From assembly GCA_964035545.1 (NCBI GenBank), contig CAXIUT010000103.1, positions 674,001 to 738,000 on the forward strand: a stretch of DNA of 64,000 bases, read 5' to 3'. Source of the DNA: Bugula neritina (lineage: Eukaryota; Animalia; Bryozoa). The notes beneath the pieces were generated by a model. The model was not told the origin of the DNA. It was given only the letters and a program-made list of their open reading frames with translations, and made no database searches. Every line of letters begins with the position of its first letter. The stretch's first letter is position 1. The position numbers and the translations under genes are program-made. This document shows, piece by piece, positions 53,282 through 63,360 of the stretch.

Positions 53282-55016
53282 AGTTGACACTAGTAGCTTT
53301 GATCAACATGTTGGCAATACAACTTAAGTAGAATCTGTTACCACTTTGCTCTTTCCCCCACATATCTGAGCATCTTATTCGTTCACCATGCTATATGACC
53401 AACTATTTGGATTTAAGGATAAAATATAAAATAAACAAAATGTTGGTATCCACTCCTTCCCCCCAGTGTCATCAGACTAATCCCACATAATGATAGATAG
53501 AGCACCGCTAAGTAATTAAAATTAGTTTGTCAACTGTATTGGGACTAGCATGTAATATTTATTTGAAATTATTTATTTCATCATAATAGGGCATAAAAGG
53601 TTAAAATTTTATCACGATGTAGCAAAGGTTCAGCAATGTTTGTTTGTTATGGCTTTGAATGTAAGTATAATGGAAAAGAGGTCACCCATTATTGACAGAT
53701 TTGTATAATGTTACACACCTTTCAACACTAGCCTCACACATCTAAATGATTATCTTGAAGATTAACAATCAAACTGAGGGAAAATACTTTATTCAAAGAT
53801 AAGGGAAACCACCATACAACATGTGAGGAAGTGTAAAACAACTAGTAAACAACAACAATGTGGTGGATACACTGGCCTATTTGTGTGTGTATTAATAATC
53901 ACTATGATTTATATCAAAGCAGTTGATATTTTTGGGCCCAGCTTAATCAACAAATATTATTTGTGATAAGGAGAGGTCAGATTTTTTTCAAACTGTGATT
54001 GTATTAATTTATCAGTTGAATTTGTGTTAGACAAAAGGGCACACATCCCTGTTTGTCATCGAAAATGAAGATGGAGTGTGTTTGCATTCCGTGTTCTAAG
54101 ATATTATGTTGGCATGAATAACCAGTCACTAACTATGGTGACAACAAGGTGGATGTTTAGTTAAGATTAAAATAGTTTTGCTCTGCTCTTTCACACCATA
54201 ACACCAGCACAATATAAACTGACATATTCTGTAAATAAGTTATTATTGTTAATTTCAATACCTAATAATATAAACTGGTTATGGTATTTGTAAGATTAAT
54301 ATTTCAAATTGGTACAAAATACATATGTACTTGGAAATAAGGAATTTGAAAATGCTGTATAAATGTAAAGTGTAAATGTGTAATTGTATTTCAAAGTGTT
54401 TTTTAGCAAGAATGCATGAGCACCTAAATGGCAGGTCTAACAAACAATAAGTAGAAAAAAGTGACTTGTATATGTACAAGTTTACAATATAAAATATAAT
54501 TTGTATGTGTAATATAGACTTTTTTTTATAAAACTCTAAAAATAATATGGGACTTTCAACTGATGACGATAGTTGAAATAAACACTGCAAAGTCATGCCA
54601 TAGTGTGTGATATAATTTACAGGCTGCTTTGAAAAGGAAAATCATGTAATGCTTATTGTTACTGCAACAATAGGTTTCACGTAATGTGTTAACCCCGGAT
54701 TATGTGTCAAATAAAATACATTAGAAAGTATTCGTAAACATTTTTATTTGTACACATATTTACTGAAGCCATGAGCTGCATGTTTTTCTGTATTATAGCT
54801 CTTAGATATACAAGTGACATATTTTATTCATACCGACAAATTTTATTACGAAAACAGATCAAGAGCTTGCACGAGAAAGGACTTCATAGAAAATGGACTC
54901 ACCATATTTTGTAAACTTTTTATCATAACCATCAATTGACTGATGAACAGTTTTGATGTTAGAGTAACAAATAAGCAATTATAAAAGTGTTTCTTCTTTC
55001 CTCAAGACTGTGTAAA

Positions 55017-55020
55017 ATAT
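55017..55020. repeat. 5' target-site duplication ATAT
   Basis: ATAT immediately precedes the 5' LTR and is repeated at 62513-62516. Confidence 0.9.
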
Positions 55021-55328
55021 TGTGGTGGCTCGTGGAGCTACCAGCAGCACAGTATACAGGGTCGCGTAATTGACCCGGAACAATTGATAGCCAATTAGCG
55101 GTTTTGATAGTTAGCAGCAGTATTAGTTTTCCCGCTGTTAGTTAGTCGAAGTTAGAGTGCTGAATAGTCTAGATGTGTGGATTGTCAAATGTATTTGTAT
55201 TGTTTTGTAATGTGTTATTGTGTTTGAAATATATATACTCGTTCACTCGACTTATCCTGGTGCAGTTCTATAGTAAGTAATTAGACTCTCTGGATAGCCT
55301 ATCAACCCTAATTCTGAAAATCATAACA
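55021..55328 (+). repeat. 5' LTR (308 bp)
   Basis: TGTGGTGGCT...TCATAACA; differs from the 3' LTR at 3 positions (55081, 55126, 55201). Confidence 0.97.
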
Positions 55329-55329
55329 G

Positions 55330-55347
55330 TGGTGGCAGCGGTGGGAT
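55330..55347 (+). promoter_or_regulatory. Primer-binding site complementary to tRNA-Leu
   Basis: TGGTGGCAGCGGTGGGAT, 1 nt after the LTR, is the reverse complement of ATCCCACCGCTGCCACCA, the 3' end of animal tRNA-Leu(AAG/TAG) as I recall it. Confidence 0.88.
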
Positions 55348-55359
55348 AGTGCATCCAAG

Positions 55360-56313
55360 ATGGAGACTGAAAATGCTGGAACGCAACCACCGGCAGTAGA
55401 AGGTGAGCGTAGAGACAATGCTGTAGAGACAATGCCTGTTAACCATGTAGTAGAAGAGCGAAGGGTTCCGCGAGAACTAATTGAAGACCGCTACCGGTTA
55501 AAGGCGCCCACCTTCACGGGCGAAGAGGAGGTGGAGCAGTTCATCCAAGAGTTTAGCGACGTAATGGACGTCGCCCAGTGGCCCCCTAGGGTGGCCCTGC
55601 TGAAGCTTAGAATGGCATTGATGGACAAAGCCAAGCCTTATGGGCTGGGCGTAGACATTGATAATATCTTTGCTTCTCTGCGGGCCCGCTTCGGCCTCTC
55701 TGCTACAGATGCCCGGGCCCGATTGCAGAGGTTGCGGCGTGATCCCCGCACCCCGCTGCGGGAACATGCCGCCGCGGTTATGAAGCTGGCACAGATCGCA
55801 TACAGCGACTTGCCCCCAGTCAACCGCGTAAGGTATACCCTCGACGCTTTCATAGCATCTGTCGACAATCTGGGTCTCCACCACCAATTTCTAGCTAGGG
55901 GAGTCACCACCGTTGAAGACGCTCTGACAGAGGGGGAAGCTTACCTCCTAGCAAATCAAATGCATAAAAGTCGCCGGAGCTCCCGTCAAGTGGAGGTAGA
56001 CCGCGCGGACACGGCAGCGGGATGAGAGGAGGAAACCTCCGCCGCGGCTGCCGTGGCTCAGTTAGCGACAGCATCGAAAGTCACTCAACTGACAGACATG
56101 CTGGCTAAACTGATAGCAACACTGACACCACAAACCCCTGTAGGCACCGCCGCTGAGCCCGTACGGCCACCGGCGCTGCCACCGGGAGAAACGGTCGGTT
56201 TTTACTGGGAATGCGGAAATCAAGGACATTTTCGCAGGTACTGTCCCTTCCTAATTGCAAGGTTAAACTACCGCGGCCCGCAGATGTTCCCACCTCCTGC
56301 GGGCCGACGATGA
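55360..56313 (+). pseudogene. gag: Gag (capsid-like region plus degenerate CCHC knuckle), one in-frame stop
   Basis: ORFs 55360-56025 and 56053-56313 share a frame and are separated by TGA at 56023-56025. APTFTGEEEVEQFIQEF is typical of Gypsy gag. The knuckle YWECGNQGHFRRYC has Tyr (TAC, 56203) in place of the first Cys. Confidence 0.9.
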
Positions 56314-56326
56314 AACCTCCAGGGAA
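56262..56326 (+). promoter_or_regulatory. -1 programmed ribosomal frameshift signal (G TTA AAC plus stem-loop/pseudoknot)
   Basis: Heptamer lies in the gag frame and pol is in the -1 frame. A 5-nt spacer is followed by a perfect 10-bp stem CGGCCCGCAG/CTGCGGGCCG (56274-56283/56297-56306); loop TTCCC can pair with GGGAA at 56322-56326. Confidence 0.8.
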
Positions 56327-59300
56327 GAAGAAACGCAGGTCACCCAGACGGGCACCGCGTACTGGCAACCAACAGTGGCAACAGCCACGACGGACCAGCA
56401 AGGGGCTCCGCCCCGCCGCTACCTATTCCATGTCCCTCCACAATCGATTCGAAAGGCTACCAGCCCAAGAATCTGGATGGGAGCCAACAAAGGTAGCCGG
56501 AAATCTAGCCTCAGCACCTCCGAGGCCCACTTACCACCATCCCAAGAGACCTCCTTCACGACCCAAAGCGAGGGAGGTACTCCCTGCGAGAGTAAGGCCT
56601 GAAGAGAGAGTTCAGGTGCAGCCCCATGGGAACAGCTATTTCTTGCCCGGTAAACTGGAAGGCAAAGCTGTTACTTTCCTCATTGATTCGGGCTGTACCA
56701 CGAACCTCTTAAGCCGCCAACTCTTCGACACCCTCAGTGCTAGGGTCAGGGGCGAGATGGAACCATACGAGGGGGAGTATGGCACCCTGGCTGACGGGTC
56801 GTGCCTTCCCTTCTATGGTATAATTGAGCTGACGGGACGAGTACGTGATCAAACGATCCAAGAGACGTTCATCGTCAGTCAGCTCAAGGAGGACGCTATC
56901 CTCGGGATGCCATTCTTAAAACGGCACGGATGTCACATCGATTTTAGTAAATCTGCGATGGTGATGTCCGGGCGAGAACTCGCCTGCGTCGACAAATTCG
57001 GCCGCCCTTTAGTGGGAGGTGTGCAGGTGGTACGTAACCGTACCATACCAGGCCGCTCCCGGGCTACCATTCACTGCAGGGTGAACAATAGCCGGATCTC
57101 CGGACTCGGGGTAGTTGAATCCAACTTGCCAGCAGTCTGAATCAGCTGACTGAGCAAGGGGAGATCTTAGTGCAGTGCGTCAACCCATTTACCGAGTCTG
57201 TCAAGCTTCCGGCTGGGTCTATGCTGGGCCGTTTTCACTCTGTTCAGGAGGAAGACGTGGGCCCGTCGCTGGGTGATGCGACGGAGGCATTCCCTCGGTG
57301 CCCCACTCAAGGGCGAGGGACAATCCCAGCACATCTCCGGGAGTTGTATGACACAGCCTGTGGCGGCTGCGCGAGTAACAAAGAACGCCAGGCTATGGCG
57401 AAGTTACTACGCGACTACGGTGATGTGTTCAGCAGCAGAGATCATGACGTGGGGCTGACTGGAGTTGTCAGACACGAAATACCGCTGACTGCAGGGACAG
57501 TCCCTGTCCGGCAACCCACACGTAGGCTGGGGCCGGAAAAAGAGAAGGTGGTTAGCCGACAAGTACGGGATCTTCTGGACCGAAGACTGATAGAGCCCGC
57601 CCATAGTGCGTGGAGCTCGCCGGTCGTACTGGTCCGGAAGAAAGACGGCAGTTGGCGGTTCTGTGTGGATTACCGCAAGCTCAATAGCGTAACCATACAA
57701 GACGCCTACCCTCTCCCTCGTATCGACGAGTCATTGGATGCCCTAGCCGGCAGCAAGTACTTCAGTATGTTAGACTTGCTGAGTGGCTACTGGCAAGTTC
57801 CTCTGAGTCCCGATGCCCAGGAGAAAGCGGCGTTTATCACACGGGACGGTTTGTGGAAGTGGAAGGTGTTGCCTTTCGGGTTAACCTCCGCCCCAGCCAC
57901 CTTCCAGAAGCTGATGGAGCAAGTCCTTAGCGAGCTCCATTGGAAGACACTGCTGGTCTACCTCGATGATGTCATCGTGATCTCCCCAGACTTCGAGACG
58001 CATGTCAGTCGTCTACAGGAGGTCTTCGAGAGACTCCGAGGTGCCGGTCTTAAGCTCAAACCTTCCAAGTGCGCTCTATTGCACCCGGAGGTCAAGTACC
58101 TGGGGCACGTTGTCGGTCGAAACGGCGTGGCAACGGATCCCGAAAAGGTACGGGCGATAAAAGACTGGGTCACCCCCCAAGACTTGACCGGAGTCCGGGT
58201 TTTCTTGGGGCTGGTAGGGTATTACAGGCAATACATACCGGACTTTGCGGGCATAGCACAGCCGTTAAACCGGCTCACCGCAAAGGGAGTGACGTGGCAG
58301 TGGACCCCAGTCAAACAAGGAGCGTTCGACCGCCTCAAGGGCTGCCTGCTAACGGCGCCCATCTTGGCCTACCCAGACCCCACTCTGGAGTACATCCTCG
58401 ACACGGACGCCAGTGACCGAAATGTTGGCGCTGTGCTGTCTCAAGTGCAGGAAGGCCGAGAGGTAGTAGTAGCCTACTACAGCAAGTCTCTCTCACCCGC
58501 TGAACAAAATTACTGCACTACCCGCAAGGAGCTGCTGGCAGTAATCAAGTCAGTGAAGCACTTCAGACCATACTTATATGGCAGGAAGTTCCGGCTGCGT
58601 ACGGATCATGCCTCGCTGATCTGGTTGTGCAAGAGAGCAGAGCCCTCTAGTCAGGTCGCCCGGTGGCTCGAAATCCTAGCTGAATTCTCGTACCGGATCG
58701 AACATCGACCGGGCAAGAGACACAGCAATGCGGATGGTTTGAGCCGCCGACCTGATGGAGGTTGCAAACAGTGTCTCAACATCGAGAGGAGGGACGGAGG
58801 TCCCCCGCGATGCGAGTTGGAGACATTGGTTCACCACGGAGCACCGTTTGACTGGGACCAGGGTCAACTCAGGCAAGAGGTTGACGAGTCCCCGGAGGTT
58901 GTACAGAACCTCCGCGCCAATCCTGTACTGGCCAATAATGTCCAGGAGCTGAAGAAGCTCCAAGAGGAGTTGCCTGGGGTAGTGGCAGACATATATCAGG
59001 CCAAAAATGACGGGCGACGACCCAGCGAGGAACGCATACGACAGGGATGCGCCGAGTTCCGGCTACTCTGCCAGCGTTGGGACTCGCTGAGGATCGGGCA
59101 GGATGGTCTATTGACTATCTCTCTAGCTGCCAACGGCAGACACCCGGAGAGGAAAAGGGTGGTCTGCCCCAGTGCCATACGCCGTGAGTTAACCTGGGAC
59201 ACTCACAAACAGGCCCACGCAGGGGTCAAGAGAGTGATCTCCAAATTGCAACTCCGGTGGTGTTGGCCCAAAATGGGGCGGGATGTCCGGCTCAGAGTAA

Positions 59301-60822
59301 AGCAGTGCGAAATCTGCCAGGCCAGCAAGCATGGCCGTCTCCCTGGTGAAGCGGGACGGTGAAGGCTATATGCTGGCAGGCCGTGGCAAGTGGTAGCTGT
59401 TGACCTGGTCGACTGTTGACCTGTTGACCCTGACCCCCAGAGGCAATAGTTGGATCTTAGTATTAACCGACCACTTCACTAGGTGGGCGGATGCTCTGGC
59501 CATCCCAGACGCGTCAGCCCCAACAGTGGCCAGGGTACTGGACCAACATGTATTCTGTTATTTCGGTCTCCCCGAACAGATACACTCTGATCAAAGCGCT
59601 CAATTCCAGTCTCAACTGATGAGCGACCTTTGCCGCCTCTAGGGAGTAAATCAGAGCAGGACCACCCCCTATCACCCACAAGGTAATTGGGTGGTGGAGC
59701 GCAACAACCGGATGCTAGGTGATGCGCTCCGGAGTCTCCTCCTTGGATGCAGTCAAGAGGAATGGGACACGGTGTTGCCGCAGGTCATGCGTGCATACCG
59801 TAGCACCCCACACACCAGTACTGGTGAGACCCCAAACCTCTTGATGCTCGGGAGAGAGACCCGCGTACCTGACCATCTCACCTACCACGTTCCAGAGCTA
59901 GACAACTCAATTCACGAGTATGCCAGTGAACTAGTGGAACGGATGAAGGCCGCACACGATATACTGCGCGAACTGCAGTGGAAGGTGCGACACGAAGATT
60001 CCGAGGAACCACCCCTCTACCAAACAGGGGATAAGGTGTGGATGGTCAATTGCCGTAGGCGTCGCGGACAGGCGGCTAAGTTACAGCCTAAGTTCGTGGG
60101 ACCCTACGTGATCGTCGAGGCTATGCCCAACCATACGTACGAGATTGAGCGCTCAGGACAAGTGTCTATCCAGAATGAGTCTCGCTTGAAGCCGTATTGG
60201 GCTAGCCCCGACGCAGTGGGAGAAGCCCGCCGTTGTTGGAGCCCAGGAGGCAGACAACAACGCGCGGGCGACGGCGGCATGGACCTGAATATGAAGTGGT
60301 CATACTGCGGGAGGAAAACTTGGTGAGAGAAGAGCGACAGCTTTTGCCAACAGAAGCGTGTCCGCCGCCACCAAGTCTAATTCCATCACTTCCAGAAACC
60401 GAGCCGGCTCCGGAAGTGCAAACCCCCACGGAGGGAGGGGCTCCATCTGGAGAACAAGAAGAAGTGACTGCCAACGGTGAAGTAGAGACGCCATTAGAGG
60501 CCCCTGCTAACAAACCGGCGAGCGTGTCACCCCCCCCCTAGAAAGGGGACAGCGTACGAGGCAACCCCCCGCATACTTGAAGGACTTCATATGCGACTGC
60601 GTTAAAAGCGGCACGTATGAAAGTCTAGGGGAAAACCGTACGAGAAAAATATCGAGCAAATGTGGGAGTTGTCAACACCACGGAAATATCAACTTTTGTA
60701 TCGGCGGAAATAGAAACAAAATTCATCCGCCGGGTGCACCAAGTCTTAATCACGCACCCCAACCACGTTGCTCGATCCCATACGCTGATGTAGTCAAGAG
60801 TAGACGTGTTTCTAAGCAGTAG
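56268..60822 (+). pseudogene. pol: Pol polyprotein: aspartic protease, reverse transcriptase, RNase H, integrase; disrupted
   Basis: PR FLIDSGC (~56685); RT WRFCVDYRKLN, PFGL and YLDD (57959); RNase H LDTDAS; IN H-x3-H...CEIC, HSDQ, YHPQGN..VER, GPY; C-terminal RTRQPPAYLKDF. Stops at 59360 and 59640; frame changes near 57118, 59410, 60228 and 60535. Confidence 0.95.
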
Positions 60823-60846
60823 TTCAAACCATTTCACAAATTCAGT

Positions 60847-61917
60847 ATGTCTTACGACAACAGATCGTGGGGTGAGTTAACTATATCTTAATATGAAACT
60901 AGATTGCATCGCTCAGCTCCGACTCACTGAGTCAAACGAGCTGGAGATAGGTTAGTGAACTACCGTAGTAAGAACTCAGTTTGACTTAGAGATTTTATAA
61001 TCTCATTGCAATACGTGTTCTATCTGACTATTCACTACCATAAATCTCTACGAGGTAACTGAGAGAGTAGTTGCCAGGCTGTTCAAGCTGACAACACGGC
61101 AGTGTACTATACTAACACTGTTGAAACTTTTTCAGATTACACTCGACCCGTTACAACCAGGGTACGGGATAGAGCACTTCCCGCTCCGCATCCTGAGGAG
61201 TATGCCAATGGTGACCGGCCCGAGCCACTGCGCCGCCGTTGGCGGTGGGTGTCTCCAGAAACAGAGGAGCAGATAGAAACGGCCTGGAGGTCCAAAGGAC
61301 GGATGCGGTGCCAGATTTGTGACGAAGAATGTGCCTCTCACCGCTCCTTGAAGCTACATGTCAACGCCCATCTCTTGCTCACATTCTGCCCCTGTGGATA
61401 CAATGATGTCTACCCCTACCCCGTCACCAGACATCGAGCGACGGGCTGTTTCTCCGGAGAGAATTACGTGGTGAATGCCAAGCTCTATCCAGAATTCCTC
61501 ACTCTGATACGACCCCTAGTAAAGAAGGCGATGTTGTTAGCCGTCCTGACCTCAGGTTTCCAGCGTGTACTAGACTATGCCAGGCAACAATCTCCATTGG
61601 TATCTGACCGCCCTCAGATTGCGTACACCCCCGAAGAGTTTTCCTATCCCGGAGAAGGAGAGATCTCCCCTACCCCGACGAAGAGACGAACCAGGTCTCC
61701 CAGTCCCCCTCTGCGCCGCAGACAGACACCGTCCCCAGACCCTGCTCGCCTGGCTACAGTGGAGGAACGCCTTCTCCGCCTACAAGAGGAATTTACCCAG
61801 TTAGCACCGGACTTGCTTAATACCACGACAGGGCTCTTTCAACTAAAAGGATCGGTGGGCCGGATTAAACGGAAGCTACGTACGTGCCAAGCCAAACATC
61901 GGCGTGCCCAACACTGA
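60847..61917 (+). CDS. Spliced accessory ORF3 of the retrotransposon: join(60847..60871,61136..61917), 268 aa; C2H2 + C2HC zinc fingers, basic SP-rich tract, C-terminal coiled coil
   Basis: ATG at 60847 (MSYDNRSW) then G|GTGAGT donor; TACTAAC branch point at 61110-61116; TTTTTCAG acceptor ending 61135. The phase-1 join gives GAT in frame with the open 61102-61917 ORF, which has no ATG near its 5' end. Confidence 0.78.
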
Positions 61918-62192
61918 CTCTGGTTCTGCTGCCGGAATAACCCACAACTTTGTCCTCTTGGGAGACCCAAGACTATCATGTAAATGCTCGATTGCTCGAC
62001 AGGTCGACCCTTTGTCCAATACCACAGCTAGCCGGTATTTCTCCTCTATAGCTGGCCAATTGTATGTAGCCTGCTGTTATAATGACTCTGTCTGTTATTG
62101 TATATCTTATATATTGTCTTTTTCCAATTTTGTCTACTGATGTATGTGGGTAATGAAGAAATAATTTTTATATCAGAAAGAGAGCTTTCTGC

Positions 62193-62204
62193 TGGTGGGG
62201 GCGG
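62193..62204 (+). promoter_or_regulatory. Polypurine (G-rich) tract
   Basis: TGGTGGGGGCGG abuts the 3' LTR; preceded by the hairpin CAGAAAG-AGAG-CTTTCTG (62174-62191). Confidence 0.7.
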
Positions 62205-62512
62205 TGTGGTGGCTCGTGGAGCTACCAGCAGCACAGTATACAGGGTCGCGTAATTGACCCGGAATAATTGATAGCCAATTAGCGGTTTTGATAGTTAGCA
62301 GCAGTATTAATTTTCCCGCTGTTAGTTAGTCGAAGTTAGAGTGCTGAATAGTCTAGATGTGTGGATTGTCAAATGTATTTGTATCGTTTTGTAATGTGTT
62401 ATTGTGTTTGAAATATATATACTCGTTCACTCGACTTATCCTGGTGCAGTTCTATAGTAAGTAATTAGACTCTCTGGATAGCCTATCAACCCTAATTCTG
62501 AAAATCATAACA
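62205..62512 (+). repeat. 3' LTR (308 bp)
   Basis: 305/308 identical to the 5' LTR; TG...CA ends. Confidence 0.97.
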
Positions 62513-62516
62513 ATAT
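62513..62516. repeat. 3' target-site duplication ATAT
   Basis: Matches 55017-55020. Confidence 0.9.
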
Positions 62517-62997
62517 GTTGGCAGTATAATTTTTCAAGTTCTTCAATTGATAGCTGTTACCTGAAAAAAAAACAACAGCCAATTTGGAAAAGGATGTTTT
62601 AGACACAAAATTTGGTACATAAAATTCGAGTTGGTTTGCAGCAAAATTATTCTAACAGGTAAACATAAACTGATGGCCTGAGAACAAAATTATTCAGAAA
62701 CCAACTCTTCAGTCAAAGACTGTACATTCACTACATTCACTGATTCACATTATGCAAATATATTTTTCATTTGTCTTATGGAAAGTTACAGTGAAGGAAA
62801 CCACAACCACAAATTAAGCCCTATACGGCATCCATTCCCATAATGCACATTCATGGAAACGCAGTGACTGCAATAAACCTGGCCTGTATAACTAGCTCCT
62901 AAAATATAACATGATGTTGTTTTTAATATATTACACCTATAAACATGCTGTAATATATTATATAACTATGGGGTGCCAAATGGTCAAAAATTCTCTT

Positions 62998-63360
62998 ATT
63001 ATTACATCTCATATGCTTATAATACAGTATCGAGCCATTATTCTCTCTCATATGCTCACAAAACGCTCTCATAGGTACATAATTTGCTCTCATACCCTTA
63101 TTATTCGAGCTCTTAGGTCTATTATTTAGTTTCACACTGCTATTATTCATTCCCATACCCTTATTTCTCCTCCTTTTATGCTCATTATTCAGTCCCATAC
63201 CTCCATTATATACTCTCATATCCCTATTGCTTGCTCTGCTATAGACATTATTGAATCTGTTATGCTTATTATTCTCTCTCATACCCTTATTACTGTCTTG
63301 CTTTTTCGCCCCTATTACCAACTGTCATACCTCTATTATTCGCTACCATACCTCTATTCT
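62998..63360. repeat. Degenerate 21-bp minisatellite, ~17 copies, consensus ~ATTATTCTCTCTCATACCCTT
   Basis: ATTATT-anchored units recur about every 21 nt (one 18-nt and one ~25-nt unit). Confidence 0.85.

Follow-up and report, generated by a model that had tools for sequence, protein, structure and literature searches.

A conserved zinc-finger and coiled-coil gene of non-Env type downstream of pol in a Ty3/Gypsy element of Bugula neritina

Behind pol, in the slot where errantiviruses carry env, a Gypsy element of Bugula neritina bears a third open reading frame (ORF3), for which an earlier note had proposed a spliced accessory gene with zinc fingers and a coiled coil. This raises the question of whether ORF3 is a real gene of the element, how its mRNA is assembled and what its product could do. 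The window, that is, the whole stretch of 64,000 nucleotides that was analysed, contains the element at 55021-62512 on the forward strand as its sole LTR element outside a tandem array. This array extends from position 1 to about 52100 and has 39 copies of a 1341-bp unit with about 35% GC, 98-100% identical over the 300-nt stretches compared. Five short degenerate AT-rich repeats are found in the 3′ flank of the element at 62998-63295. The parts of the element are:

55017 to 55020, forward strand: 5′ target-site duplication ATAT, repeated at 62513-62516
55021 to 55328, forward strand: 5′ LTR of 308 bp with TG...CA ends
55329 to 55346, forward strand: primer-binding site (PBS)
55360 to 56283, forward strand: gag, broken by a stop at 56023-56025
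56619 to 60822, forward strand: pol with protease, RT, RNase H, integrase, SH3 and a long tail, interrupted by frameshifts and a stop at 59360-59362
62194 to 62204, forward strand: polypurine tract
62205 to 62512, forward strand: 3′ LTR of 308 bp, unlike the 5′ LTR at 3 of the 307 bases compared

The LTR ends, target-site duplication, PBS, polypurine tract, pol order and RT assign the element to Ty3/Gypsy (Metaviridae). Protease, RT, RNase H, integrase and SH3 were recognised by Pfam in the Gypsy order, and the nearest solved match of the RT was Ty3 Gag-Pol (E 1e-94), retroviral RTs scoring 6e-36 or weaker. The RT trees were built from the recovered loci only. No chromodomain was found in the pol tail frames of the window, where the frame closes at a TAG at 60820-60822, or in the Pol frames of four relatives. 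The PBS, which we take to be that of tRNA-Leu, is identical or near-identical ahead of gag in 11 related loci, and the 5′ LTR promoter is probably formed by a TATA-like box near 55230 and an initiator-like site near 55264. Since stops and frameshifts interrupt both gag and pol, this copy is non-autonomous. In one DNA run, the summed depth of the family ranged from thousands to more than 100,000, whereas the 3′ flank had a depth of about 160; this suggests a high copy number.

The intactness of ORF3 in this copy is, by itself, little proof of a gene, since gag-pol carries about six breaks in 5.4 kb and zero breaks in 0.78 kb would be expected with a chance of about 0.4. The protein was characterised through the following features and through its homologs:

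61136 to 61917, forward strand: main ORF3 exon, 56% GC, open to the TGA at 61915-61917
61216 to 61587, forward strand: folded core of 124 residues, with a Trp-led helix, two zinc fingers and closing helices
61309 to 61371, forward strand: finger 1, C2H2
61387 to 61449, forward strand: finger 2, CxC...H-x4-C
61672 to 61740, forward strand: basic Ser/Thr-Pro tract, subfamily-specific
61750 to 61899, forward strand: C-terminal heptad helix with a basic end, close-family mean identity 0.78

The main exon encodes 260 residues, with a compact core that holds both fingers, then a flexible linker and lastly a basic coil, and the protein has a net charge of +15. The zinc motifs at 61309-61449, the Ser/Thr-Pro tract and the heptads are present as they had been described from the letters. 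The tract has K/R runs in just 4 of 59 close homologs and a mean identity of 0.28, whereas the coil is the best-conserved part of the close family, so the basic tract is specific to this subfamily. The highest hydrophobicity of any 19-mer (1.51, Kyte-Doolittle) falls inside the folded core, and there is thus no clear membrane anchor, in agreement with the earlier reading. Likewise, no Pfam env match, signal peptide or glycoprotein likeness was detected in ORF3.

With the 260 residues as query, 66 protein homologs were found at E ≤ 0.01 with 43-95% identity, and the wider set comprised 95 cluster representatives with identity down to about 26%. In 49 diverse rows, the zinc ligands C59, C62, H75, H79, C85, C87 and H100 are kept in 45-49, and the last one, C105, in 34; P0141, which resembles a generic multi-finger protein, was excluded from the alignments. 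Finger 1 fits the classical C-x2-C-x12-H-x3-H pattern, and zf-C2H2_4 was recognised in 14 of 49 members at E ≤ 0.05 (best 1e-4). No Pfam family was above cut-off for the window's protein, none of four proteins was matched by NCBIfam, and the top PDB sequence matches of the ORF3 profile were C2H2 proteins (E 6e-7). In Atlas searches, the clusters matched by ORF3 were either unnamed or of generic C2H2 type, and recognition stayed under the threshold. ORF3 is a real, conserved accessory gene that falls in no named family; it is element-borne and of non-Env type, as the earlier note had proposed from a single copy.

The organism-named records among the 30 ORF3 clusters and 120 integrase matches listed were all from bryozoans (Watersipora subatra and Bugula neritina), every named homolog being labelled "uncharacterized" or "hypothetical". 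Scans of metagenome, viral and genome contigs with the close-family alignment returned no loci, and those of viral and genome contigs with integrase and PBS returned four, all without the module. In both bryozoans, some homologs are annotated as host proteins, in part with isoforms or two copies of the domain. Five such proteins share the finger domain (P0135, P0159, P0160, P0074 and P0283), three of them with a further N-terminal motif in common, and the locus tags of two Bugula genes are adjacent. These host-annotated proteins are possibly domesticated copies or the donor family.

The structure of the core was predicted with high confidence (pLDDT 95.3, pTM 0.87), whereas the full-length model was poor (pLDDT 58). 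The fold search with the full-length model was empty, and the core gave no match at Z ≥ 5 or Foldseek E ≤ 0.001 in the PDB and a viral library. Many of the top structural neighbours over core residues 22-82 are tandem C2H2 DNA binders, such as Kaiso (Z 4.0, rmsd 2.8, 57 aligned residues) and SALL4, ZBTB38 and CTCF (Z 3.4-3.7). These neighbours cover the finger pair only, with Z 3-4 and rmsd 2.5-3.6 over 50-57 residues, and unrelated helical proteins score equally well. The linker between the fingers is non-canonical.

To which elements the module belongs was then read from the integrase. An integrase alignment recovered 80 loci, and the domain profile matched 13 of them at E ≤ 0.01 (the best reversed peptide among 7510 had E 0.16); these 13 make up about seven families and are not 13 independent cases. 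In 12, the module is on the sense strand downstream of integrase, and in several relatives it is fused to integrase. It is not universal, since L005 and L006 lack such an ORF up to the gag that follows. In L022 (6434-6823, minus strand), the finger domain is antisense, about 2.7 kb downstream of integrase.

Module and coil form the in-frame end of open Pol frames in L001/L002 and L025/L026/L033, and a weaker module match lies likewise at the Pol end in L013; these frames (L001/L002, L025/L026 and L013) are 1744-2105 aa long. In L014, the module is in frame with the integrase tail up to a frameshift. L003, L004, L011 and L023 carry the module as a separate ORF that starts with a Met of its own, and in L012 it is decayed. 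The frame of L013 (1067-7381) is a Gag-Pol frame in which, in addition, a dUTPase (E 1e-42) separates RNase H from integrase. The fused relatives have a long acidic linker with an internal Met between integrase and fingers. Across module-bearing elements, the ligands are intact although identity is down to 42-56% for integrase and about 30% for the domain, and the nearest RT relative of the window's element is the fused L001 (71%). On an unrooted tree with 11 rows labelled as fused or separate, in part by motif only, four changes of state were required, and the AU test gave p 0.04 and 0.02 against grouping the two separate or the two fused homologous cases.

Integrase-tail sequence is in frame in two homolog clusters (P0041 and P0075), and a weak search among proteins of 971-2770 aa found no fusions. 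Exact size matches between ORF3-bearing and integrase-bearing contigs were obtained for 6 of 33 contigs (≥ 2.5 kb), compared with 0.29 expected by shifting, with 120 of the 271 integrase matches used; this is indirect evidence that the ORF3 of the close family goes with integrase. The profile does not extend to eight further near loci, in which integrase is followed by Cys/His motifs of other kinds. A C2H2-like motif is also present, in some cases probably by chance, in 8 of the 21 distant loci that have at least 1200 nt downstream. Other finger pairs, fused to integrase or separate and in several cases followed by strongly acidic tails, occur in a sister clade (L008, L016, L017, L018, L019, L029, L032 and L062). 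Nine distant Gypsy families (L036, L040, L044, L046, L050, L052, L053, L060 and L072) have separate third ORFs that begin with a single C2H2 finger and have unrelated bodies.

The ORF3 mRNA could begin with either of two exons:

55360 to 55402, forward strand: candidate gag first exon, 43 nt, phase 1, donor AAG/GTGAGC, 274 codons in total
60847 to 60871, forward strand: local ATG exon, 25 nt, phase 1, donor GGG/GTGAGT at 60872, 268 codons in total
60872 to 61135, forward strand: spacer or candidate 264-nt intron, 39% GC

The 25-nt exon, its donor, the TACTAAC branch point at 61110, the acceptor ending at 61135, the 264-nt intron and the 268 codons were all found where the earlier note had placed them, and the branch point (61110-61116) is the sole copy of this motif in 55001-62600. 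A shuffle test of the branch point over all 64,000 nucleotides was dominated by the tandem array and is not counted as evidence. The acceptor is conserved, since 15 of 16 homologs that reach past the 61135 site read F/L-S/L and then D/G, whereas the frame upstream of it varies between subfamilies and is not kept. Downstream of the acceptor, the three closest homologs covering this stretch reach the first finger without a Met, and therefore the start of ORF3 must lie upstream.

The local exon that the earlier note had joined to this acceptor has, however, a competitor 43 nt into gag that is in phase and stronger. With a crude scoring scheme over 365 GT sites, the gag-proximal donor ranked first and the local donor third. 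The mRNA would most likely join the first 14 gag codons (55402/55403) to the acceptor at 61135 in env style, a reading that is given about an even chance. In the accessible text of PMC4402516, the Tor3a env mRNA is spliced from a donor close to where gag begins to an acceptor ahead of env, and Tor3b and Tor4b env have an internal promoter; the slot after pol and the two routes proposed here are thus like those of errantivirus and Tor env (PMC13524379 and PMC4402516, as far as accessible). The pairing of gag-donor and acceptor phases across 11 related loci showed no consistent pattern by the same crude scan.

A splice within the 3′ region, removing the 264-nt intron behind the local ATG exon, is plausible at somewhat less than an even chance; it would use an internal promoter or an upstream donor through an AG at 60845. 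The local exon has an open, in-phase ATG and a perfect GTGAGT, and an internal promoter would have its precedent in Tor3b/4b (PMC4402516, accessible text). In a DNA run with sibling copies, 12 substitutions and 2 indels with a share of at least 8% were listed over 60770-61200, all of them intronic (60890-61077), compared with none over 60801-60889; the clustering has a rough p of about 0.01 over a callable span of our own choosing. None of the listed variants touched the stop, the ATG exon or its donor, nor did any affect the branch point or the acceptor, but this invariance may be overstated because variants near contig ends go unlisted. In addition, the match of a deep sibling contig (depth 10417) begins at 60840, with 4 differences over 60840-60996. 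Against the local exon, the gag-proximal donor outscores it and requires no additional promoter, none having been identified for the local exon, and the loose ends of three contigs before 60895 lack the donor (agreement only 0.69). Both first exons may be used, and their products differ in the first 8-14 residues only. Precise intron loss was not seen among the joints listed (1 of 1 in one scan and 15 of 63 in another).

Read-through of the pol stop into the 25-nt exon, which share a frame across one TAG, was considered and judged unlikely, since no stop variant was listed and the loose ends of four sibling contigs place the ATG one base further off. Within the LTR, a perfect GTAAGT donor lies at 55273, about 9 nt past the putative start site, and the AG at 60845 ends one base ahead of the ORF3 ATG. 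Together, these two sites could give a doubly spliced mRNA.

Regarding function, ORF3 is tentatively taken as an oligomeric nucleic-acid-binding regulator that would act on the element's own LTR DNA and promote full-length RNA. The protein, likely made from a spliced subgenomic RNA, would be nuclear and would oligomerise through the predicted coiled coil, and its two fingers would bind the LTR, with DNA rather than RNA as ligand, which would likely help the production of full-length element RNA. This preference, a tentative one, draws on a finger geometry like that of DNA readers and on activation-like stretches in related modules; against it, structural scores are weak and two fingers read a short site. 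C2H2 fingers also bind RNA and protein. By the rule applied, activation-domain-like windows are present in 11 of 12 related modules, compared with 1 of 3 Pol cores, and are absent from the window's protein and all 33 close homologs of at least 200 aa. Since it lacks such acidic, hydrophobic stretches, the window's subfamily would need a partner, perhaps recruited through the coil. The foamy virus protein Tas/Bel1 is a DNA-binding activator encoded beside the 3′ LTR, spliced from an internal promoter and equipped with an acidic activation region. Most related modules have an acidic region like that of Tas/Bel1 and the window's subfamily does not; this likeness, to a different virus family, is by description only.

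The same absence of activation-like windows brings an RNA-export role close behind, namely that, in the nucleus, the protein would bind the unspliced RNA of the element, form multimers by means of its coil and license export, with feedback on splicing, as for CERV or Rev. As described in the accessible text of PMC10309623, CERV of the C. elegans Ty3/Gypsy element Cer1 is a spliced, nuclear, Cys-rich protein required for genomic RNA export and phosphorylated by a presumed proline-directed kinase. ORF3 shares its slot, would share gag peptides with its mRNA under the gag-donor model as CERV does, is basic and has S/T-P sites, and Cer1 also has one long polyprotein frame, as do L001 and L025 (PMC10309623, accessible text). 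In addition, the strong splice sites of the element imply that unspliced RNA must escape retention. However, CERV is 517 aa long and is described with H, M and G-protein-like domains and perhaps a C4 finger (same source and extent), whereas ORF3, compared here by description, has about 270 aa, a tandem C2H2-like pair and a C-terminal coil. The Ser/Thr-Pro tract is also unconserved and DNA binders are frequent among the fold neighbours of the finger pair, so the export role is considered possible but doubtful.

The integrase fusion in relatives, missed by the earlier note, opens another reading, in which the finger pair guides insertion like a chromodomain and the separate form rejoins integrase or Gag through its coil. 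Pol fusion in L001/L002, L025/L026 and L013 fits such tethering at least as well as it fits an LTR-DNA regulator, and the fused state of the nearest RT relative and the alternation of states also speak for it. In chromoviruses, the chromodomain is at the integrase C-terminus, where fused relatives here have their module (PMC3605345), but the ORF3 module has a different fold and also exists as a separate gene. Tethering is nevertheless regarded as quite unlikely, since the acidic linker with an internal Met, present even in fused cases, suits a protein that is made on its own, a tether acting in cis would lose much from being split off repeatedly, and the weak search of long proteins gave no fusions. 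Least probable by far is a captured host zinc-finger gene that rides along with no role for the element. The host-annotated homologs of both bryozoans, three with the common N-terminal motif, speak for it, but the module stays after integrase across diverged elements with its ligands intact and every named homolog is "uncharacterized" or "hypothetical"; since the domain tree is unrooted, it does not separate capture from domestication. The remaining probability goes to anti-silencing and other roles. The regulator acting on LTR DNA is thus the preferred reading.

Beyond CERV, the accessible texts describe non-Env ORF3s of bdelloid rotifers with GDSL, DEDDy, coiled-coil and TM types (PMC5408684), additional ORFs in plant elements (PMC7264820) and non-Env third genes in the MDG1 group (PMC11952523). 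ORF3 is like the rotifer and plant ORFs, as far as these are described there, in being a family-specific gene after pol, gained and lost by lineage (PMC5408684, PMC7264820). The word "zinc" does not occur in the main text of either source, and no Pol-fused form was found in their accessible parts. Unlike errantivirus and Tor env, ORF3 is devoid of a signal peptide, membrane anchor and glycoprotein likeness. No zinc-finger third gene of this sort was found in the accessible parts of PMC13524379, PMC8220671 and PMC12440569. A literature search by title and abstract start, lying outside Repbase, Dfam, GyDB and subscription journals, gave no description of the ORF3 family. The protein, which has no Pfam, NCBIfam or PDB family, may thus represent a new family, but a spliced non-Env regulator in this slot is already published (CERV, PMC10309623, accessible text).

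Non-Env third genes are thus already known from Cer1 (CERV), rotifers, plants and MDG1, and what appears to be new is this zinc-finger and coil family. Complex retroviruses stand out by their regulatory accessory proteins, and CERV is the sole Gypsy case with a tested regulatory role that we met (PMC10309623, accessible text). ORF3 would add a second, apparently unrelated regulator-like family, whose core is predicted with high confidence and of which many natural variants exist. A new principle would depend on its function, the present case being at the level of sequence and model. A wider picture, rather improbable as a whole, would be a broad, hitherto undescribed marine-invertebrate Gypsy lineage with a Tas-like zinc-finger regulator of transcription that repeatedly switches between integrase tail and separate spliced gene, here uses alternative first exons like complex retroviruses and has seeded a bryozoan host family. 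The module, fused in some and free in other close relatives, offers a natural comparison for the origin of accessory genes from Pol tails, and its host-annotated bryozoan homologs may record capture or domestication.
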